A stretch of 64,000 nucleotides of DNA from Escherichia coli (GCF_048403405.1 NZ_CP183129.1), one strand, 5' to 3'. Positions 571-27,926 are shown, numbered from the stretch's first letter. Program-made: numbers and translations. The notes: generated from the sequence alone by a model not told the origin.

Positions 571-1044
571 CTATTTCAGGCACTGAGTGCGGATATAGTC
601 CTGCGCCCCTTCCAGCTGCTTCTGCATCAGCATCAACCGTTCTCTGAGAGTGAAATAATCCCGTTCAGCGGTGTCTGCCAGTTGGGGGCCGGTTGTATTA
701 TCCACGCGGGCGGTGCCGGTGGCTTCACGCACGGGACCTGGACAGGTGGCGTTGATACGCAGGCGCTTACGACCAGCGGCAACGTCAGCGCGAAGAGTTT
801 CATTTTCAGCTCTCGCATCGGCTAATTCCCTCGAGTATTTTGCATCGAGCGCAGCAACATCGCGCTGGCGCACCTGCATATCAGTAATGGTTGCGTTCGC
901 CAGCTTCAGTTCACTGGCTTTGTTATCGCGCTGCGCTTTGTAGGTAATCGCGTTATCACGGTAATGGTCTGTTGCCATCCACAGCGCTCCACAGGCCACC
1001 AGCAGAATAACGATAAACGCGGAAAGCATTCGGTTTATGTTCAC
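571..1044 (-). CDS. Rz-like i-spanin, last gene of the lysis cassette
   Basis: 157-aa ORF with N-terminal hydrophobic segment and charged/coiled-coil-like periplasmic part; fully contains an out-of-frame lipoprotein ORF (Rz1), the embedded spanin arrangement of lambdoid phages. Confidence 0.8.
633..818 (-). CDS. Rz1-like o-spanin lipoprotein, embedded in Rz in another frame
   Basis: Signal peptide ending in lipobox VSAC followed by proline-rich mature region ([14 protein letters not shown]); lies entirely inside 571..1044. Confidence 0.7.
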
Positions 1045-1172
1045 CCCAGCAGCCCCGACGAAGACAACATCATCCAGGCCATGGAAAGAAAAAGAGCAAC
1101 CAGCATTAGTGAAAATGAAATGCCGACAATTACACAGAGGATCTTCGCCAGCGTTATGAGTTTGTCTGACAT
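1041..1172 (-). CDS. small hydrophobic membrane peptide (43 aa), function unknown
   Basis: Internal ATG of the 73-aa ORF ([10 protein letters not shown]...); single TM helix; start of Rz overlaps its stop; no recognisable family. Confidence 0.35.
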
Positions 1173-1186
1173 GCTTAATCCTCCCT

Positions 1187-1369
1187 TCACGATTTCAACG
1201 CAATGACCAGTTTTGCCAGCCCATACAGCATCGGGGACACAGCAACACCGACCGCCACCCACTTAATGGCAAAAGCCAGTGCTCTGCTGATGTCATCAGT
1301 TACAGGCGCTTTCAGTTCAAGGCCGTTTTTCATAGTCAACCTCAACAGAATTCGTTTATACTTTTCCAT
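1187..1369 (-). CDS. small membrane-anchored protein (60 aa), possible lysis accessory
   Basis: ATG at 1369 preceded by AGGGAG Shine-Dalgarno; C-terminal hydrophobic helix; sits between endolysin and Rz. Confidence 0.4.
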
Positions 1370-1403
1370 GTTCTCCCTTGCCTTATCCAAGGTCAGAAAC
1401 ACA

Positions 1404-1436
1404 AAACCCCGCTTGCAGCCAACAAACGGGGTTTTT
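1404..1436. terminator. hairpin with flanking T/A runs between endolysin and downstream small gene
   Basis: aaccccg...cggggtt stem with ttttt on plus strand and T-rich tract on minus strand; large loop, so weak. Confidence 0.3.
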
Positions 1437-1525
1437 ACTTTTATTCACTTAGGTTTTGCCAGTTCTCAGGATTTCGTGTTATCCGTCCGCATTAGCCAAC
1501 GTCATTTTTCAACAAAATATTCTGC

Positions 1526-2059
1526 TTATTTGTCAATTCCCCAGCACGCCAGCGCGCTCTCCTGGTCACGCCGTGAGACCTGTCCATAGCAGTTATTTGA
1601 ACGAATACGGCAGTCTCTGCCACCGTCCTTAATCCACCAGCGAATCGCCTCACATGCTCCCCTGCGATCGCCAGCATTAATTCGTCTGTAAAACGTCGAC
1701 GGGAAACACTTACCGGGACCAATGTTGTACGGACAGAATGACGCGATCCCCGCTTTCTGGGGTTCGGTCAATGGCACTTTGATGTTTTTCTCCACCCATG
1801 CCAGCGCCTTATCACGCTCAATGGCGTTAACCCGGTCGCATTTTTCCTTCGACAACTTCATGCCCGGAACGACAGGTTTGCCATCCACCAGGATGGCACC
1901 GCGGCAGATGGTCCAGATACCCGCGCCATCACGGTATGCCGTGGTGTGGTTACCTTCCTTTTCATCCAGAAACTGGTCGAGAATGTCAGGCGCAGGCGCA
2001 CCAGCGGCAATCAGCGCCAGAACGGCAGCCGACAGGCCGTATCTGATTTTTGCGTTCAT
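1526..2059 (-). CDS. SAR-type phage endolysin (T4-lysozyme-like, GH24)
   Basis: N-terminal weakly hydrophobic Ala/Gly-rich signal-anchor-release segment (LSAAVLALIAAGAPAP) then E-x8-D-x5-T catalytic motif (EGNHTTAYRDGAGIWT); paired with a pinholin upstream. Confidence 0.85.
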   Translation of the reverse strand: MNAKIRYGLSAAVLALIAAGAPAPDILDQFLDEKEGNHTTAYRDGAGIWTICRGAILVDGKPVVPGMKLSKEKCDRVNAIERDKALAWVEKNIKVPLTEPQKAGIASFCPYNIGPGKCFPSTFYRRINAGDRRGACEAIRWWIKDGGRDCRIRSNNCYGQVSRRDQESALACWGIDK

Positions 2060-2164: not shown

Positions 2165-2437
2165 ATGGACAATAACACCATTTCTCTACAGGAGTTGCTC
2201 GACAGCATTTCCAGGCTTCGGGAAGACGTGAATACCCTTACCGTCGCCTTCTCATATCTGGCATTCTCAATTCCAAGGGAACAGATGCAATCAACGCTGG
2301 CATCAATCCAGTTTGAATCATGCAATCCCAAATGGTCTCAGGAACAACAAGACTCTTTCAGGCGGCTTGCTGTATTACTGGATGAAAAATATGCTGGTAA
2401 AATTACCATTTCGGCGGACTCTTCAGAGAACCCGTAA
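2165..2437 (+). CDS. hypothetical 90-aa protein encoded antisense to the late operon
   Basis: ATG at 2165 with GAGGA Shine-Dalgarno 6 nt upstream; no TM or signal peptide; 3' end overlaps the convergent 114-aa gene by 35 bp. Confidence 0.45.
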   Translation: MDNNTISLQELLDSISRLREDVNTLTVAFSYLAFSIPREQMQSTLASIQFESCNPKWSQEQQDSFRRLAVLLDEKYAGKITISADSSENP

Positions 2438-2747
2438 TTATTCCCGGTAGTTTTCCTCTGTAGGTTATCAACACATCCTGCGCCTCTAAAATTACGGGGC
2501 GCTTTTCCGGCGACTGCTCATCCCCTTCACATAACCCGGCAGCAACATCCAGGAAGACCTGTCTGATGCTCCTTCTGGCTGCTGCCTCATAAAACTCCAG
2601 CGCGGCACCTTCAACACGGTCCAGCGAGATGTCCAGGTCAAAAATTTCACCGTCAAAGCGTTTTTTGTCCCGTAACGCTAAAGTTACCGTAACTTTATTC
2701 TCAAAATTGCGGATCCCTTTCACAATCAGTTTATAGTTTTGAGTCAT
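2403..2747 (-). CDS. hypothetical 114-aa protein between holin and endolysin
   Basis: ATG 4 nt after the holin stop with GGAGAG Shine-Dalgarno; no recognisable domain. Confidence 0.55.
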   Translation of the reverse strand: MTQNYKLIVKGIRNFENKVTVTLALRDKKRFDGEIFDLDISLDRVEGAALEFYEAAARRSIRQVFLDVAAGLCEGDEQSPEKRPVILEAQDVLITYRGKLPGIITGSLKSPPKW

Positions 2748-2751
2748 TGAA

Positions 2752-2967
2752 TTACTCTCCCCGTGCAGCCTTACGACGGTCCTCTCTGATTTTGAAATAC
2801 AGGTTAGTCAGATATGTCAGCAGCCCAAACAGCAGACTCCCCAGCACGCCTATTGCCGCCCACTGAGACGGGGAAACCCTGTCCAGCAACTGCAGGAACC
2901 AGTAGCCCGTTCCCACCGCTGACGTGGTGTATGACACACCTGTTGTGATTTTTTCCATCTGGTACAT
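2752..2967 (-). CDS. class II pinholin (phage 21 S21-like), dual-start motif
   Basis: [10 protein letters not shown]... two closely spaced Met starts; two TM segments; C-terminus ...[22 protein letters not shown] matches S21 as recalled. Confidence 0.8.
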
Positions 2968-3117: not shown

Positions 3118-4971
3118 TTATGATGATGCCGGTGCATTTATCTCCAGCACCAGACTTTCTATCTCAACGCCATACGCTGCATTTTTGGTAATATCCGTCA
3201 GCGTCAGCGCATTCAGCCCCAGTGTCAGACTGTCTTTTATGACCTGGAATGCCGGGCCAGCCACTCCATTCAGTTTCGGAGTAACCGTGGCACTGCCGGC
3301 GGTGAACACCAGCTCCAGCGTCTGCCAGTCGTTACTGTAATTCCCGAACTCGCCCAACTTTGTGTTTCCTGCTTTCTTGTGATGCATCAGATTCAGTTTG
3401 CCGTCTGTGGTCTGGGTGAAGAACGACATCAGGAACGGGTTACCAGTCCCGGTCATCGCCACGACGTCAGGTAACGCTACATCGGTATACAGATAAATTC
3501 CCAGACCGAACTGATTGTTGGTCAGTGCGCCTGACAGTCGAAACTTACAGCTCAGTCTGCCACCCCGTGTCAGCAGGGAGACTGCGTCATCCACCGGGCG
3601 CGTCAGGGACCAGGCTTTATTGCTCTGCTTGGTGATCTTAAATACACCATCTGACAACTGAATTCCGCCATTCTTAATGCTCCAGCCCTGCGCAGCAGCG
3701 TCTCCGGCTGTCGGCAACAGGGAGATTGTGCGTATGGATGCATCTTCAGACGGCCCCGATGGCGTGTCGCCGCCGGGCGAGAGTTTGATTTCCGGTGCCT
3801 TACCACTAATGAAGGCTAAGGTGCGACCGGCTACGTTCAGAATAGCAGTTGCCATACGATCGGGAATAATGCCACGACGCGCCCATGAGCTGAAATGCGT
3901 CGGGCGATTTGATGATACCCAGTTTTTGTTCGTTCGGGATGCCGAACCGTAATAACCAGACCCGACAATATCAGGATCTTCTGACGGGTTGTTTGTCGGT
4001 GTATTAACTCCGCTACCATCGGTCATAAAGGGAACAAAATAAATCTGCTGGGATTCTTTACCTTTATATGCACCATATACCACTTCATATTGCGTACCGT
4101 GTTCTTGTTTCCACGCGTATGTCGTGTCGCCACAAATCCAGGGGACTGATGCCGGACTTCCACCGTGACACTGCGCTGCCAGCCCGGCAAGGTCAGCACG
4201 GAACTGCTGTACCATTGCAAGAAATGCTGCTGGCTGCTGGGCGTAACTGGCATTCGTCATATCGAATTCCCCCTGCATCCAGCATATCGCCAGCAAAACG
4301 TTTTTCGGGTTTTTCTGCAATGCTGCCTTCGTGCGGAAAAGCAGATCCTGATATAACGGCTTACCCACTCCCCAGCGAGCCGAATCCTGACTGGCTCCCG
4401 TGGACTCGCTGAATGTCCCCTCCGTGCCCTGGGTGAATGCCGAACCACCACGACAGCATGGTACCAGCAGGATCCCCGCATTATTAGGGATATACGGAAG
4501 CAGTTTTTTGGCAATATGTAAGCCCTGTCCGACACAGCCGTACTGCCCTTTGCTCAGGTCAGCCCGGGGATGGTTAATCGTACTCATATCCTGAACATCA
4601 TGCAGACAATGGTCAGCAGGAATGATGTCGTTAAATACGCATACTTCACCACCGGGAGTCACTGTGTTACGACGGGCCAGTTGCTTAATGCGCGGATGGG
4701 GCGCATCGTATGAATCCGGAAGCGGAAGCCCTTCACCGTAAGCCATGGCATTGGATTGCCCGGCCAGTACGATGACGTAGTACCACTCCGGCTCAGTTGC
4801 ACCACTGACGACCACATCACCTTCTGCTGCAATCGCCTGCATCAGGGTATAAGGGGTTATGGCCACCGGACTACCAAACGGCTGCCAGCCCTCCTTCAGT
4901 TTTTGTGTCAGTCGTTTCGCAAGGTCTGACGGCGATGCCGCCCTGACCACGTCATAGTGTTTAAATGCCAT
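3118..4971 (-). CDS. nanS: prophage sialate O-acetylesterase (NanS-p-like, SGNH hydrolase)
   Basis: 617-aa protein with GQSN motif (VLAGQSNAMAYG) near N-terminus and long C-terminal beta-rich region; sits between the tRNA cluster and holin as in Stx phages. Confidence 0.75.
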   Translation of the reverse strand: MAFKHYDVVRAASPSDLAKRLTQKLKEGWQPFGSPVAITPYTLMQAIAAEGDVVVSGATEPEWYYVIVLAGQSNAMAYGEGLPLPDSYDAPHPRIKQLARRNTVTPGGEVCVFNDIIPADHCLHDVQDMSTINHPRADLSKGQYGCVGQGLHIAKKLLPYIPNNAGILLVPCCRGGSAFTQGTEGTFSESTGASQDSARWGVGKPLYQDLLFRTKAALQKNPKNVLLAICWMQGEFDMTNASYAQQPAAFLAMVQQFRADLAGLAAQCHGGSPASVPWICGDTTYAWKQEHGTQYEVVYGAYKGKESQQIYFVPFMTDGSGVNTPTNNPSEDPDIVGSGYYGSASRTNKNWVSSNRPTHFSSWARRGIIPDRMATAILNVAGRTLAFISGKAPEIKLSPGGDTPSGPSEDASIRTISLLPTAGDAAAQGWSIKNGGIQLSDGVFKITKQSNKAWSLTRPVDDAVSLLTRGGRLSCKFRLSGALTNNQFGLGIYLYTDVALPDVVAMTGTGNPFLMSFFTQTTDGKLNLMHHKKAGNTKLGEFGNYSNDWQTLELVFTAGSATVTPKLNGVAGPAFQVIKDSLTLGLNALTLTDITKNAAYGVEIESLVLEINAPASS

Positions 4972-5164
4972 GAATCCTCCCGGGCGGGATAATGTTGTGA
5001 GTCAGATAAGGAGCAGGCTGAAGTCCGGAAGTTACAGGACAATGGCAGAAGGGAGACTACAGCCCGCAATTCGAAAAAGACCGCGCAGTTGCGCAGAGTG
5101 ATTACTATGGGGTATTATTCGCCAGCTGAAATATTACTTCACGTTTTATTGTTTATTCCTTGCC

Positions 5165-5193
5165 GCCCGCGTCTCCCAGCGCGGGCTTTTTTT
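5165..5193 (+). terminator. intrinsic terminator oriented for the plus strand
   Basis: gcccgcg / cgcgggc 7-bp stem, 8-nt loop, then ttttttt. Confidence 0.6.
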
Positions 5194-5689: not shown

Positions 5690-5904
5690 AAAGCCCCTCC
5701 GGAGAGGGGCTGGAGAGTGGCGCTATGTGCCATTGCATGGTGCCGGGTGCCTCCCGGTGAATTCAGTACCAGCACCTGAATCCGCGATTATCCCATATAC
5801 CTACTCGCTGATTGCCCCTCCGCACAGGGGGATTCACCATGCCAGTTTCTTTTAACAAACTCCCCGCAAACCAGACAACAGTCAACCGCCTGAATTGTGA
5901 GACA
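5690..5904 (-). repeat. copy 2 of the tandem structured element
   Basis: Same hairpin set and shared segments (gggggattcaccatgc, tgaattgtgag) as copy 1. Confidence 0.6.
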
Positions 5905-5945
5905 TTTAAAAAAAAGCCCGCAAAAGCGAGCCAGGGAAAATAAGT

Positions 5946-6022
5946 GTGGCGCGTTGTACTGGATTCGAACCAGTGACCGATTGCTTAGAAGGCAATTGCT
6001 CTGTCCGGCTGAGCTAACAACG
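5946..6022 (-). tRNA. argO: tRNA-Arg (anticodon UCU), phage argO-like
   Basis: Reverse complement folds as canonical cloverleaf: acceptor GCGTTGT/ACAACGC, anticodon loop CTTCTAA, T-loop TTCGAAT, 3' CCA. Confidence 0.85.
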
Positions 6023-6035
6023 CAGGATACAGATA

Positions 6036-6113
6036 ATGGACCGCCTTCGGGGACCCGAACTCCGCGCAACCAGCTTCGAAGGCTGGCGCTCTTTCCTGAT
6101 GAGCTAATGGCGG
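6036..6113 (-). tRNA. argN: tRNA-Arg-like (anticodon UCG inferred), phage argN-like, possibly degenerate
   Basis: Cloverleaf with anticodon stem CCAGC/GCTGG and loop CTTCGAA, but one acceptor mismatch, one T-stem mismatch and atypical T-loop TTCGGGT. Confidence 0.6.
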
Positions 6114-6120
6114 TATGTGA

Positions 6121-6196
6121 TGGTGGCCCTTGCTGGATTTGAACCAGCGACCTGGCGATTATGAGTCGCTCGCTCTCACCACTGAGCTAAAGGGCC
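6121..6196 (-). tRNA. ileZ: tRNA-Ile2-like (anticodon CAU), phage ileZ-like
   Basis: Reverse complement GGCCCTTTAGCTCAGTGGTGAGAGCG...CTCATAA...TTCAAATCCAGCAAGGGCCACCA closely resembles E. coli ileX as recalled. Confidence 0.85.
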
Positions 6197-6245
6197 GGAA
6201 GCAGAATAATAATGGTGCGTAATTAATTCTGCAATCTCATCCGTT

Positions 6246-6572
6246 TCAAACGATTAAATCCTGAACTTCCCTGACTGTCTGCTCAAAACGTCCGGTCTCC
6301 AGTTCAACGCCAATCGCACGACGCCCGAGCGCCAGTGCCGCTTTTACCGTTGAACCTGAGCCCATAAAAAAATCTGCAACCAGGTCTCCCGGACGACTGC
6401 TTGCGCTGATTATCTGCTGCAGCATTTCTGCCGGTTTTTCGCACGGATGTTTCCCGGGATAGAACTGCACCGGTTTATGCGTCCAGACATCGGTATACGG
6501 CACCTGCGCTGTCACGCCAAAATACCGCCGCAGTCGGCATTCACAACCACAAGCGTGTTTAACGTACTGCAC
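6246..6572 (-). pseudogene. 5'-truncated DNA methyltransferase remnant (C-terminal half only)
   Basis: Carries HPCEKP and FMGSGST motifs but no upstream DPPY-type catalytic motif; in-frame stop 2 codons upstream of the GTG; only ~110 bp to the next gene. Confidence 0.6.
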
Positions 6573-6585
6573 AGCTTTTCAGACA

Positions 6586-6612
6586 TAAAAAGGCCGCCTG
6601 ATAGCAGCCTTT
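6586..6612 (-). terminator. intrinsic terminator downstream of the PP2C gene
   Basis: On minus strand aggctgc-tatcag-gcggcct stem (one G-U pair) followed by ttttt. Confidence 0.5.
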
Positions 6613-6682
6613 TCACATTAAAATTAAGTTTTTCTTTACTCTGTAGTATGGGAAATTAGCATTCCCTACTGGGTTTATACAA

Positions 6683-7426
6683 CTAATCTGACGTCACACG
6701 CACCATTATACTTACTAAAGAAAAGTCATCATCAGGTCCGGCTCTCTCTATACGACGCAAAATACCATTAGAAAACTTCTGACTATTACTCATAGTATTT
6801 GATGTAAATCTGGGGCGTTTTTCCCAAACGTTATGAACTCCATCAGACATGATACACAGATGATACAACCCGTTAATACCAGGCAAATCTTTCCACGGGA
6901 TAAAATCACAGTCGTATTCCATATCAACATTTGAGGCTATGGCAGTCGTTAAGATATTTTTTCCCGGTTTATTCTTCAAATCTCTGGGTTTAAAAATATT
7001 CTGATCAATTAACATCTGATGTCTGGTATCGTCCTTCGTCAATTGATATGCTTTCTTTTCTCCAATGCAATACAAGCGACAATCACCAATATGACCAATA
7101 ATAATTCCGCTATCACAAACATAACAAAAGGTAAGTGTAGTAGCAGCTTTATCGAACTCATCATTAACTTCAGCTAACGACATAACTTTTCGCTTAACTT
7201 CAGCAAATACATTCGGAACTGCATCAAAAGATAAACTTGTCAATGCTGAAAGTTCAGCGATTGCCATGGATGAAGCATAACTGGCACCAGAGTATGAACC
7301 TACACCATCAGCTACGGCAAATAAGATGCCGTCTCCTACAATTTTTGGAGGAAGCAATGAATCTTCGTTGACCCTACCTGGTTCTTTTGGATACGAGAAT
7401 GATGAAGTCGCTATCAGCTGAATCAT
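6683..7426 (-). CDS. PP2C-family (PPM) Ser/Thr protein phosphatase
   Basis: Motifs NEDS, FAVADGVGS, GHIGDCR, MSDGV in PP2C order; ATG with AAGGAG Shine-Dalgarno; 103 bp downstream of the kinase gene. Confidence 0.8.
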   Translation of the reverse strand: MIQLIATSSFSYPKEPGRVNEDSLLPPKIVGDGILFAVADGVGSYSGASYASSMAIAELSALTSLSFDAVPNVFAEVKRKVMSLAEVNDEFDKAATTLTFCYVCDSGIIIGHIGDCRLYCIGEKKAYQLTKDDTRHQMLIDQNIFKPRDLKNKPGKNILTTAIASNVDMEYDCDFIPWKDLPGINGLYHLCIMSDGVHNVWEKRPRFTSNTMSNSQKFSNGILRRIERAGPDDDFSLVSIMVRVTSD

Positions 7427-11101: not shown

Positions 11102-12208
11102 TCAAACAATCTGGAAAATATTTCTTGGATTTGTAATAGGTCTGTTGATGGAGAACAACTCACGAATTAAATCTTGGCTCAAGCCAGTTTTCATAAGAAT
11201 TCTTAGCCAGGTTGCATCATCCAGCATTTCAATCGCCTCGGCCAGCATGCCGGGTTCTTCAGGGCGCAAAAGTTCATCACCAGGTTCAACTCTCGTATAC
11301 CCTCTGGAATTAAGATGCATATAGCCAGTTCTTGCCTGTTCCTGGGTCAATAAGCCTAATGCGCTGGCTCGATAAATACACATTTTAAGGCTGATTTTCC
11401 ATCTAAGTTTAAATTCAACCAGAGCATTCCAGTCGAATTGCTTACCTCGTATTCGTGGAAATTCTTTAATGAAAGATAACCTGGGAACTAATAAGGCGCT
11501 CGAAAAGTGATCGGCTTGTGATTCCGTAAGTTTATCACCTGTCGTTATGCCCTCATGCATTACTAAATGCCCTAATTCATGACCTAAATCAGAGCGAAAT
11601 CTACATATGCTTTTTTTAACATTGTTCCTGATGATAACAGGCCTGTTATTGTGAACAGTAAAAGCATCAACACGATCATCGACTCCCGTAACATGCGCAA
11701 CGATTACCCCTAAACTCTCCGCCAATTTAACCATTGATGATATAGGGCCAAGACCTAAATTCCAGGCACGGCGACAATCTTCTGCCACTCGCTCAATATC
11801 ATTCGGAGTAAGTAATTCAGCCCCTGGGTGCTCCGGTATGTTAACGTCAGGAAATTCGATTTCACCTTCAACAGCAGAAATTATAATATTAAGAATCTCA
11901 GCCCTGGCCAATACACTATTAGTCAGCGTTTGAGTCCTGGACTTCTTACTCCGAAAATGGCAGACATCACTTTCCAGAGCGTATTTTCGTTCAGTAAAAA
12001 GAAAACTGGACTTAATCATAAGCGCTGAAGATATTAACTCAAGACATTGCTCCGATGGCCTGCACCCCTTCTCCAGTTTGCTAACGAATTGCTTTGTCTT
12101 GCCAATTTTTTCGGCTAACTCTTCACAAGAAAGCCCAACAGCCATTCTCGCTAGTTTGAGCTTATCACCCCGATACTCAGTGAAGTTATTCACCTGATGT
12201 TCCATCAC
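11102..12208 (-). CDS. HTH (XRE-family) + ImmA/IrrE-type M78 zinc metallopeptidase fusion protein
   Basis: N-terminal helix-turn-helix (LKLARMAVGLSCEELAEKIGKTKQFVSKLEKG); C-terminal HExxH (HELGHLVMHE); start overlaps the upstream gene by 23 bp. Confidence 0.8.
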   Translation of the reverse strand: MMEHQVNNFTEYRGDKLKLARMAVGLSCEELAEKIGKTKQFVSKLEKGCRPSEQCLELISSALMIKSSFLFTERKYALESDVCHFRSKKSRTQTLTNSVLARAEILNIIISAVEGEIEFPDVNIPEHPGAELLTPNDIERVAEDCRRAWNLGLGPISSMVKLAESLGVIVAHVTGVDDRVDAFTVHNNRPVIIRNNVKKSICRFRSDLGHELGHLVMHEGITTGDKLTESQADHFSSALLVPRLSFIKEFPRIRGKQFDWNALVEFKLRWKISLKMCIYRASALGLLTQEQARTGYMHLNSRGYTRVEPGDELLRPEEPGMLAEAIEMLDDATWLRILMKTGLSQDLIRELFSINRPITNPRNIFQIV

Positions 12209-14135: not shown

Positions 14136-14987
14136 TTAAACACGAGGCATATAGGTCTGATTCCGATATTCAATTGGAGTCAGACCTTTTAATTTCAGGC
14201 TAATTCTTCTGCTGTTGTAGTATTCAATATATTCCGTAACAGCATCCTTCAGTTCGCTTATATTACTGAACTCATCAAGATAAAAACACTCCGACTTTAA
14301 GGTTCCAAAGAAACACTCCACCACAGCATTATCCAGACAATTGCCTTTTCTGGACATGCTTTGTTTAATACCATGTTCTTTAAGGATATTTTGATATCTT
14401 CTCATACGATACTGCCATCCCTGGTCAGAGTGCAGAACAGGATGCTCGTGAGGATTAAGCTTTTTGAATGCCTGATCGAGCATATTCTCAACCATGTTCA
14501 TCACTGGTCTTTCCGAAAGGCTGTAAGAAATAACTTCGTTGTTGAAGAGATCTATTACTGGAGACAAATACAGCTTGCGCCCATTGACTGCAAATTCAGT
14601 AACATCGGTAACCCACTTCTCGTTTGGCCGCGTAGCCTTGAAATCTCTTTGGAGAACATTAGGGGCGGTTTGCCCTACCTCTCCTCTGTAAGAGCGGTAT
14701 CGCTTGACCTTAATCGCTGCTTTAAGTGAGAGGGTTCCCATCAGGCGCTGAACAGCTTTATGGTTAATCTGTTTCCCTTCTCGATGAAGAGACAGCGTTA
14801 CCCTACGGTATCCGTATCGGCCTCTATTCTCGTGATAAATCTCACTAATACGCTTTTTAACGTCCGCATACTTGTCAGGCTTGCTGAGAGCCTTTAGATG
14901 ATAATAAAACGTACTGCGCGGTATCTCCGCAGCCCTGAGAAGCTCATCAAGAGGATAAAACTGCCTTAGCTCGTTGAGTACTTTCAC
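14136..14987 (-). CDS. insK: IS150 transposase OrfB (integrase/DDE domain)
   Basis: 283 aa; matches InsK as recalled; overlaps OrfA in the -1 frame. Confidence 0.9.
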
Positions 14988-27182: not shown

Positions 27183-27926
27183 ATGTCTATCACGGCGCAG
27201 TCCGTATACCGTGACACCGGAAATTTCTTCCGTAATCAATTTATGACCATTCTGTTGGTATCGTTGCTATGTGCGTTTATCACAGTGGTGTTAGGGCATG
27301 TTTTCTCACCCAGTGATGCACAGCTTGCGCAGCTCAATGACGGCGTGCCCGTTAGCGGCAGTAGTGGGTTGTTCGACCTGGTTCAGAATATGTCACCGGA
27401 ACAGCAACAAATTTTGCTGCAGGCTTCAGCGGCGTCCACTTTTTCAGGATTAATCGGTAACGCCATTCTCGCCGGAGGCGTAATATTAATTATCCAGCTG
27501 GTGTCTGCGGGTCAGAGAGTCAGTGCGCTGCGAGCTATTGGTGCCAGTGCGCCGATATTGCCAAAGTTATTTATTCTGATTTTTCTGACTACCCTTTTAG
27601 TACAGATTGGCATCATGCTGGTGGTCGTTCCGGGAATTATCATGGCCATTTTACTGGCCCTGGCACCGGTGATGTTGGTACAGGACAAAATGGGCGTTTT
27701 TGCCTCGATGCGTAGCAGTATGCGGCTGACTTGGGCGAATATGCGTCTGGTGGCACCCGCAGTACTGAGCTGGTTGCTGGCAAAAACACTGTTGCTGCTT
27801 TTTGCCTCTTCTTTTGCCGCATTAACCCCGGAAATTGGTGCCGTACTGGCGAACACCTTGAGCAACCTGATTTCAGCCGTACTGCTCATCTATCTGTTCC
27901 GCCTGTATATGTTGATTCGCCAATAA
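27183..27926 (+). CDS. yciC: inner membrane protein YciC (UPF0259)
   Basis: 247-aa multi-TM protein; K-12 synteny. Confidence 0.9.

Follow-up and report, generated by a model that had tools for sequence, protein, structure and literature searches.

Locus and gene content

A stretch of 64,000 nucleotides (nt) from Escherichia coli (GCF_048403405.1, NZ_CP183129.1), here called the window, was analysed around two small open reading frames (ORFs), ORF-A and ORF-B. They lie between the gene for a signal-arrest-release (SAR)-like endolysin and the spanin genes Rz/Rz1 in the late region of a lambdoid prophage. Comparative sequence analysis indicates that both are real, conserved genes under purifying selection. 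They are a cargo of late operons, not dedicated partners of the SAR endolysin or of a pinholin, and in Escherichia and Salmonella they are mostly found just before the spanin genes. The original prediction had described ORFs of 60 and 43 amino acids between the SAR endolysin and Rz/Rz1 with a hairpin ahead of them, and every detail was accurate, the genes being read from the minus strand. The hairpin itself was found as described; its place in a conserved leader, and a possible antisense promoter, had gone unnoticed. The features under study are as follows.

1187-1369, minus strand: ORF-A, 60 amino acids from ATG, PHROG 1115/4493, WP_021566721.1, predicted tail-anchored protein
1041-1172, minus strand: ORF-B, 43 amino acids from ATG, PHROG 4906, WP_001280932.1, one N-terminal transmembrane (TM) segment
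1372-1392, minus strand: Shine-Dalgarno (SD) site AAGGGAGA and mini-hairpin (1376-1392) with a 5-bp stem and 7-nt loop, the 3' arm overlapping the SD
1393-1447 (stem 1403-1435), both strands: hairpin resembling a bidirectional intrinsic terminator, with T-runs on either strand
1333-1362, plus strand: TAGTCA-18-TATACT, a match resembling a sigma70 promoter on the strand opposite to ORF-A codons 3-13, its start predicted near 1369
1369-1447, plus strand: predicted, hypothetical antisense RNA of about 79 nt, with a 5' stem-loop complementary to the ORF-A ribosome-binding site (RBS), then the terminator and a U-tail

The genes are closely packed. The ATG of ORF-A lies 5 nt downstream of its SD, an AGGGAGG begins immediately after the ORF-A TGA and precedes the ATG of ORF-B by 7 nt, and the TGA of ORF-B overlaps a GTG start of Rz as GTGA.

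Evidence that ORF-A and ORF-B are genes

In the 100% identical locus of E. coli 118UI both ORFs are annotated by the NCBI Prokaryotic Genome Annotation Pipeline (PGAP) as hypothetical proteins. Over its full length ORF-A matched the profiles of PHROG 1115 and 4493 with E values of 1.4e-42 and 2.6e-30, and ORF-B likewise that of PHROG 4906 (2.1e-23); neither had a match in Pfam, NCBIfam, PADLOC or the PDB sequences. Pairwise Nei-Gojobori estimates of the ratio of nonsynonymous to synonymous divergence (dN/dS) for the most diverged pairs were 0.13-0.25 in frame, at dS of 0.9-1.4, and 0.7-5.6 in the two shifted frames of the same DNA. The ratio between ORF-B and its homolog in phage 933W was 0.47. 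Homologs of ORF-A were found in Escherichia (many), E. marmotae, Salmonella and metagenomes, and those of ORF-B are numerous in Escherichia. Counted by DNA similarity at a coverage of at least 80%, ORF-A is present in 1043 of 5426 complete E. coli genomes (~19%) and ORF-B in 1695 (~31%), with as many as 11 places for ORF-B in one genome. The plaque-forming phages PhiR12_1-5 and PhiR5_2 also carry ORF-A/ORF-B.

Such short ORFs are common in any sequence (53 were counted in 3.5 kb here), and the two might be chance ORFs in an intergenic spacer. The dN/dS values, with purifying selection specific to the true frame, already refute this explanation, and the strong ribosome-binding sites, the conservation from E. 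coli through Salmonella to metagenomes and the PHROG matches also speak against it; its probability is negligible. The original prediction had staked itself on conservation, and both ORFs are conserved and under purifying selection, so it holds on this point.

Properties of the two proteins and their families

The membrane topology first proposed, a C-terminal hydrophobic helix in ORF-A and a single TM segment in ORF-B, was borne out by hydropathy and, for ORF-A, by AlphaFold2. The N-terminus of ORF-A is rich in lysine and arginine, and the protein has one long C-terminal helix, modelled by AlphaFold2 at residues 25-59 (mean pLDDT 68.7, with the N-terminus at low confidence) and followed by only 2-4 residues. 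Its hydrophobic stretch is moderate; the best 19-mer has a mean Kyte-Doolittle value of 1.88, and two lysines lie within it. By the positive-inside rule, ORF-A would have a cytoplasmic N-terminus and a tail anchor. A 71-amino-acid version of ORF-A starting at a GTG at position 1402 was rejected; this codon lies at the foot of the hairpin without a ribosome-binding site, and homologs begin at the ATG or GTG of the KYKR motif.

An exhaustive profile search delimited an ORF-A family of 38-65 amino acids sharing the motif [KR]Y.R....[LM]...MK[ND]G.E..AP......A.AFAI[KR], many members of which end in RWW. Several database entries of this family are mis-started, and ECs_1094 of O157 Sakai, listed with 37 amino acids, is really a 50-amino-acid A-type protein starting from GTG.

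ORF-B has one strongly hydrophobic N-terminal segment (mean Kyte-Doolittle value 2.89) followed by an uncharged tail of 12-14 residues; the same rule would place its N-terminus in the cytoplasm and the short tail in the periplasm. Its homologs adjoin Rz in 276 phage records, most of which leave the homolog unannotated. In 933W (NC_000924.1, locus L112), an unannotated homolog of 44-48 amino acids (MGWLMISDKLITLVK...) lies between ant and Rz at record positions 27423-27570, and Min27 (L100) has the same arrangement. The ATG of the 933W homolog overlaps the ant stop codon. The newer Sakai annotation includes the ORF-B homolog as ECs_1966 and ECs_5730, and at the O157 locus 7 nt separate ORF-B from Rz.

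Two unusual arrangements of the pair were also seen. In one widespread variant (P0094; locus L004 of an E. coli O25b:H4 strain, locus positions 1502-1752), ORF-B comes first and overlaps an N-terminally truncated ORF-A, and in one metagenomic ORF the two are fused into an 83-amino-acid protein with two helices. These variants may represent decay, or may hint that the two helices work together.

The proteins were compared with known classes of small phage proteins. Both have the size and character of type I toxins (small hydrophobic membrane proteins of about 60 amino acids or less); neither contains a Hok/Gef domain in Pfam or NCBIfam or resembles another known toxin family. No holin family was matched in Pfam or the PHROG lysis category, and the C-terminal tails, with 2-14 residues and at most one charge, are not the charged tails of holins. 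The Pfam search found no DUF2730 (Mu releasin) domain, no PADLOC model of a known anti-phage defence system was matched, and both proteins are without the lipobox or envelope-spanning periplasmic domain of a spanin. The idea that ORF-B forms a minimal spanin with a 60-amino-acid lipoprotein (PHROG 7528) was rejected because neither periplasmic part, at about 12 and 30 residues respectively, is long enough.

Conserved leader of ORF-A

The terminator-like hairpin upstream of ORF-A has 14 pairs at 1403-1435, followed by UUUUGUGUUU. Every examined A-family gene with a native 5' end has a GC-rich hairpin 30-60 nt upstream of its start, with an A-run before and a U-run after it, giving an intrinsic terminator readable from either strand. 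The stem sequences differ among lineages of the family, and near-identical hairpin units stand ahead of successive small membrane genes in locus L097. Between terminator and start, most A-family leaders also contain a mini-hairpin of 5 bp with a loop of 7 nt, and its 3' arm covers part of the SD. The arms of this mini-hairpin covary (CCTTG/CAAGG, CCTAT/ATAGG, CTCTG/CAGA-G, CCGTG/CACG-). In the alignment 95% of cells are paired and four of five pairs are changed on both sides, values matched by none of 500 shuffles, with slid controls at 30-62%; the paired fraction and covariation count are inflated by choosing the mini-hairpins with a hairpin finder that applies a pairing filter. No Rfam family matched the leader or the predicted antisense RNA.

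A promoter scan detected no sense-strand sigma70-like promoter between the endolysin gene and ORF-A, and the Q antiterminator gene lies about 8 kb upstream of the cassette on the same strand. It is established lambdoid biology that Q-modified polymerase ignores terminators. From the upstream terminator, the lack of a sense promoter in the scan and this biology, we infer that ORF-A and ORF-B are transcribed efficiently only by Q-modified polymerase.

The leaders of the 50-amino-acid and Salmonella A-type genes (L089-L091, L006, L101) contain an extra mini-ORF of eight codons, e.g. MCREVCSL, whose stop overlaps the A-type GTG start as GTGA; a second hairpin, AGGGA-N7-TCCCT, covers the second SD. 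This arrangement looks like leader-peptide coupling.

Possible antisense promoter and RNA

The plus-strand element TAGTCA-18-TATACT (1333-1362) was the sole match of the promoter scan near the locus, and its predicted start, at about 1369, is the ORF-A start codon. Its -10 hexamer (1357-1362) covers the Lys-Tyr codons AAG-TAT, for which few synonymous alternatives exist. An RNA starting there would be antisense over the RBS and mini-hairpin and would end at the U-run of the plus-strand terminator (GGGGUUUUUACUUUUAUU), about 79 nt in all. The predicted RNA folds as two stem-loops and a tail (-20.2 kcal/mol, z -2.9). All 12 leader-bearing units have an antisense match of at least 8 out of 12 with a predicted start no more than 3 nt from the start codon; the score is at least 9 in six units and 10 in two, e.g. 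TAGTCA-18-TATAAT in L108. At random ATG/GTG sites, scores of at least 8 and at least 9 occurred in 5.3% and 0.9% of 1965 trials, with scores of 4-6 at the starts of ORF-B, R and S21. In three units (L097c, L098b and L007, of two N-terminal types) the N-terminal coding sequence bears no relation to the A motif; the signal is therefore more than the by-product of a single peptide.

Synonymous sites were compared between the E. coli and Salmonella alleles of ORF-A, for which overall dS is ~0.9. Over codons 3-18 there are no synonymous differences in 16 conserved codons, as against 15 in 30 elsewhere (Fisher p = 3e-4). Since the flanks have diverged on either side, constraint at the nucleotide level is a better explanation for these codons than recent exchange.

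Hfq-bound small RNAs known from Sakai were considered as the antisense RNA. EcOnc22/23/24 were rejected because the gap among tail genes to which they map holds an unrelated ORF, and EcOnc11 because it lies downstream of Rz and not at the ORF-A leader. EcOnc11 is a very abundant Hfq-bound peak at NC_002695.2 1946819-1946867, just downstream of Rz and opposite the late-gene strand (Tree et al. 2014). Homologs of EcOnc11 are found in Sp9 and Sp12. There is roughly an even chance that the predicted ORF-A antisense RNA exists.

Contexts of the A-B cassette

The genes occur in the order R, ORF-A, ORF-B, Rz in about 80 loci. That they lie outside the minimal lambdoid cassette, as originally proposed, is confirmed by the content of the same slot elsewhere. 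In the Qin prophage of K-12, rrrQ and rzpQ overlap and there is no slot, and the slot content of other phages differs. A 50-amino-acid A-type gene stands alone between endolysin and Rz in L006 and GER2. ORF-A is followed by a 28-amino-acid RWW peptide in L039, L043 and L044, and the O25b:H4 strain (L004) has ORF-B, a truncated A and then a 28-amino-acid RWW peptide. In Shiga toxin (Stx) phages including 933W, the slot holds ant and then ORF-B before Rz. The supposedly empty gap between rrrQ and Rz in E. coli ARS-C301 (L007, locus positions 1659-1956) contains an unannotated FDFSKL...RWW mini-protein with the same terminator and mini-hairpin upstream. This peptide of 32-45 amino acids is tail-anchored (...MAEKLSTWKFILIWLVFVIMASGYFIGQIRWW) and ends 3 nt ahead of the Rz ATG; similar RWW peptides stand ahead of the SAR endolysin gene in L097 and of the portal gene in L098.

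The pair, or its A member, is found with several lysis systems. In a lambda-like prophage of E. coli BCE049 (L005/L008) it follows a soluble GH108 endolysin and two unrelated holins. In Salmonella the gene for one identical A protein directly precedes Rz or what is left of a truncated Rz. It does so in three contexts: directly behind ant, with a P21-type holin and lysozyme ahead of ant; behind a lambda-S-type holin and GH19 endolysin; and behind an HP1-type holin and lysozyme. More distant relatives of A also occur at other late-operon junctions, namely after tail-fibre genes (L092-L096), next to a portal gene (L098), ahead of baseplate genes (L105-L107), within the tail cluster of a siphovirus (L108) and at the end of an M15-endolysin cassette (L109-L111). 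In L097 they occupy the interval from the major capsid gene to the genes of a holin and a SAR endolysin, just upstream of these two. One prophage remnant (L102-L104) is reduced to A and Rz. In all loci examined ORF-A and ORF-B are oriented with the late operon, and mosaic boundaries coincide with the edges of the A-B cassette. Because of the GH108, the three Salmonella and the head and tail-cluster contexts, the pair is not tied to the SAR endolysin or pinholin, and the evidence leans towards a portable cassette over a partnership with the SAR endolysin.

Two cassettes without Rz/Rz1, in BCE049 (locus positions 11911-12093) and L110 (~3190-3370), have in the spanin position a lipoprotein of 51-60 amino acids (lipobox LVGC, PHROG 7528). 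It directly follows ORF-B or an RWW peptide and is too short for a conventional spanin.

Neighbouring features of the window

A lambdoid late region, transcribed from the minus strand, takes up the first 5 kb of the window. Its other features, in the order of transcription, are as follows.

3118-4971, minus strand: SASA/NanS-p-type esterase, the most upstream gene of the region in transcription order
2752-2967, minus strand: phage-21-type class II holin (pinholin family), heading the lysis cassette
2403-2747, minus strand: DUF1327/YdfR gene between holin and endolysin
1526-2059, minus strand: endolysin, GH24, Pfam Phage_lysozyme, with a SAR-like Gly/Ala-rich N-terminal hydrophobic segment
1448-1525, minus strand: conserved non-coding block from the endolysin stop to the hairpin, common to cassettes without ORF-A and ORF-B
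571-1044, minus strand: Rz i-spanin from a GTG start; PGAP places the start at 1029 instead
633-818, minus strand: Rz1 o-spanin, embedded in Rz

In the DNA search many genomes align to query positions 327-481 only, i.e. to the conserved non-coding block. The start of Rz is ambiguous between the PGAP ATG at 1029 (MLSAF...) and the GTG at 1044 (MNINR...), which overlaps the ORF-B stop; the latter regains a basic residue ahead of the TM segment, as in other Rz proteins (MNRVL...). A 90-amino-acid ORF at 2165-2437 on the plus strand (PHROG 2411, annotated as hypothetical) overlaps at its 3' end the 3' end of the YdfR gene, and this opposing pair is a further optional insertion in the lysis cassette. 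According to the annotation of E. coli 118UI (L118), an IS3-family element (~5800-7000 in the window) separates the esterase and lysis genes from the tRNA cluster that lies downstream of Q, and the type I toxin gene hokD lies in the early region (~14315-14470). The IS3 insertion may affect late transcription of this particular prophage. Upstream of the esterase, a weak, sub-threshold Rfam match to OmrA-B (25 bits, E 0.13) at 5105-5193 on the plus strand ends in a strong terminator and is probably a mere terminator resemblance.

Proposed function and alternative explanations

It is tentatively proposed that ORF-A and ORF-B are small inner-membrane proteins carried on a portable cassette in a phage-21-type lysis operon, and that they might act as membrane modulators at the time of lysis; this is judged possible, at somewhat below an even chance. 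In the lysogen ORF-A would be silent, the terminator blocking read-in, the mini-hairpin damping translation and the antisense RNA of ~79 nt perhaps blocking the ORF-A ribosome-binding site; ORF-A would also be kept off early in infection. After induction, Q-modified polymerase would pass the terminator and the late mRNA would exceed the antisense RNA, and ORF-A and ORF-B would be produced alongside holin, endolysin and spanins. Both proteins would next enter the cytoplasmic membrane and disturb either the membrane itself or the lysis proteins within it. Envelope breakdown would not require them, but they would tune when or how efficiently it happens. The layout of leader and antisense RNA resembles a cis-antisense, type I toxin-like cassette that is read only by Q-antiterminated late transcription.

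An extension of this proposal is considered unlikely. The ORF-A family might be a large, undescribed class of phage-borne type I toxin-like cassettes in which the ratio of antisense RNA to late mRNA would set a threshold timer of membrane failure, with ORF-B and the RWW mini-proteins as partner peptides beside the spanin. Such cassettes would be made up of a bidirectional terminator, a cis-antisense RNA from the first codons and a tail-anchored peptide, and would be portable and able to duplicate within late operons.

Several observations weigh against a role in lysis and its control. The lysis cassette of K-12 Qin does without ORF-A and ORF-B, and ant, plainly no lysis gene, occupies the same slot. 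The pair is indifferent to holin and endolysin type, and the positions of A relatives at capsid, portal, baseplate and tail genes fit generic cargo better than a lysis-specific function. Random synonymous recoding of the A peptide gave an equally good promoter match in 7-70% of trials, which is not significant; the match is largely implied by the conserved peptide motif, and codon choice alone is therefore no proof of a promoter. At the corresponding Sp4 position, the catalogue of Hfq-bound RNAs from Sakai (Hfq-CRAC) lists nothing. Hfq binding is not obligatory for type I antitoxin RNAs. The pairing filter behind the mini-hairpin statistics counts on the same side, and searches by peptide sequence or Sakai/EDL933 locus tags found no relevant literature on ORF-A/ORF-B.

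The main rival to lysis modulation is that both genes are generic, moron-like passengers of the late operon, whose action on the membrane would be unrelated to lysis, for example blocking DNA entry of other phages or a membrane-bound host defence, at an R-Rz junction that merely tolerates insertions; the original prediction had named both lysis-timing regulators and membrane-acting cargo as possible roles. The highly variable slot content, ant included, the presence of A-family genes at many late-operon junctions beyond lysis cassettes and the match of mosaic boundaries to the cassette edges all agree with passenger cargo, and the cassette is an insertion between genes that are adjacent in related phages, overlapping in the case of rrrQ and rzpQ. 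It does not, however, have the transcription unit of its own that would go with such cargo, as neither a sense promoter nor a terminator between ORF-B and Rz was found; with a terminator directly upstream and no sense promoter, expression in the lysogen, which is usual for exclusion functions, is unlikely. PADLOC gave no matches, and the Escherichia and Salmonella genes overwhelmingly adjoin Rz; the stop and start codons there often overlap or almost touch. Passenger cargo is thus somewhat unlikely, though the strongest of the alternatives. Lower still stands the possibility that ORF-A and its antisense RNA are a self-contained type I toxin-antitoxin (TA) module serving mainly its own retention or spread by addiction or cassette duplication, with no benefit to the lytic cycle and with ORF-B as an unrelated neighbour. 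A small hydrophobic protein behind a structured leader, an antisense promoter-like element, a bidirectional terminator, the near-identical hairpin units ahead of successive small genes in L097 and the survival of the cassette in prophage remnants that retained little else would all suit such a module. But no promoter for a toxin mRNA was found, and the toxin could not be made once the antitoxin was lost; there is no similarity to Hok/Gef or another known toxin family, and the late-operon direction is kept in all loci examined. This explanation is regarded as decidedly improbable.

A purely structural explanation would make the ORFs mainly translated spacers, through which ribosomes reach the Rz start from the terminator by means of translational coupling, the peptides themselves being functionless. 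The GTGA overlap of ORF-B and Rz would fit, as would the RWW-type relatives, which end CGN-TGG-TGG-TGA 1-3 nt before the next ATG and so form an SD-like GGTGGTGA. The amino acid sequences are nevertheless under purifying selection with their TM character conserved, ORF-B and Rz of O157 are 7 nt apart, and family members also occur where no downstream gene is coupled, so that a spacer function alone is very unlikely.

Significance

ORF-A and ORF-B are new families of a known sort, the optional small membrane proteins or morons of lambdoid late operons. Roughly one in five to one in three complete E. coli genomes contain them, and most Shiga toxin phages contain ORF-B, and the families are unnamed and often unannotated, for instance in the 933W reference record. 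Lysis timing sets burst size and, in Stx phages, toxin release, and an extra membrane component could therefore alter both. Of greatest interest, and most open to testing, is the arrangement of the leader with its predicted antisense RNA. If true, this model adds a family to the short list of phage membrane peptides under antisense control and accounts for the intrinsic terminators ahead of many small late genes.

Comparison with known systems

HokW-SokW of the Stx2 prophage Sp5 promotes phage release (PMC8621323). Like the system proposed for ORF-A, it is a prophage-borne pair of a small membrane-active peptide and a cis-antisense RNA, the latter only predicted for ORF-A, and it is made after induction and aids release alongside S and R. 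HokW has no sequence similarity to ORF-A, which contains no Hok/Gef domain. The HokW gene is not part of the lysis cassette and is transcribed from a promoter of its own, and HokW appears about 1 h earlier than R, whereas ORF-A lies inside the late operon without a sense promoter.

The 65-amino-acid membrane protein Lcc6 is required for pinholin/SAR-endolysin lysis in Shewanella phage LambdaSo, and phage Mu uses the releasin gp25 (DUF2730) (bioRxiv 10.1101/2024.01.23.576932). Both are small single-pass membrane proteins, as are ORF-A and ORF-B, and both act beyond the trio of holin, endolysin and spanin; unlike the optional ORF-A and ORF-B, they are essential for lysis. In Lcc6, whose gene is remote from the lysis genes, an N-terminal TM segment is combined with a cytoplasmic tail of 43 residues, whereas the layout of ORF-A is the opposite and ORF-B is almost tailless. 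HokW, Lcc6 and the Mu releasin are all non-homologous to ORF-A and ORF-B. Antiholins and other lysis-timing accessories, such as S21-71, P1 LydB, P2 LysA and T4 RI, are small membrane proteins of lysis cassettes that are dispensable for lysis and alter its timing. ORF-A and ORF-B have no homology to these four and are not bound to one holin type.

The moron is a concept of Hendrix and Juhala for lambdoid phages. As extra genes between otherwise adjacent genes, with a mosaic distribution and a place at late-operon junctions, morons are like the A-B cassette; an 'ant moron' has been described (PMC2629481). Classic morons have their own promoter and a downstream terminator and are expressed in the prophage, whereas the A-B cassette has its terminator upstream and no sense promoter was seen. 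In P22 sar/ant and in SymR/SymE, the promoter is on the strand opposite to the target gene and inside the gene's 5' end. The short antisense RNA (sar or SymR) forms two stem-loops, covers the RBS and stops at a terminator immediately ahead of the gene. The ORF-A leader shares this layout, its antisense RNA being predicted only. The existence and role of sar RNA have been reported (PMC2629481). The targets of sar and SymR, an antirepressor and an SOS-induced toxin, are soluble proteins, unlike the membrane protein ORF-A. Type I TA loci are similar in layout, but ORF-A has no promoter of its own and would rely instead on antiterminated late transcription.

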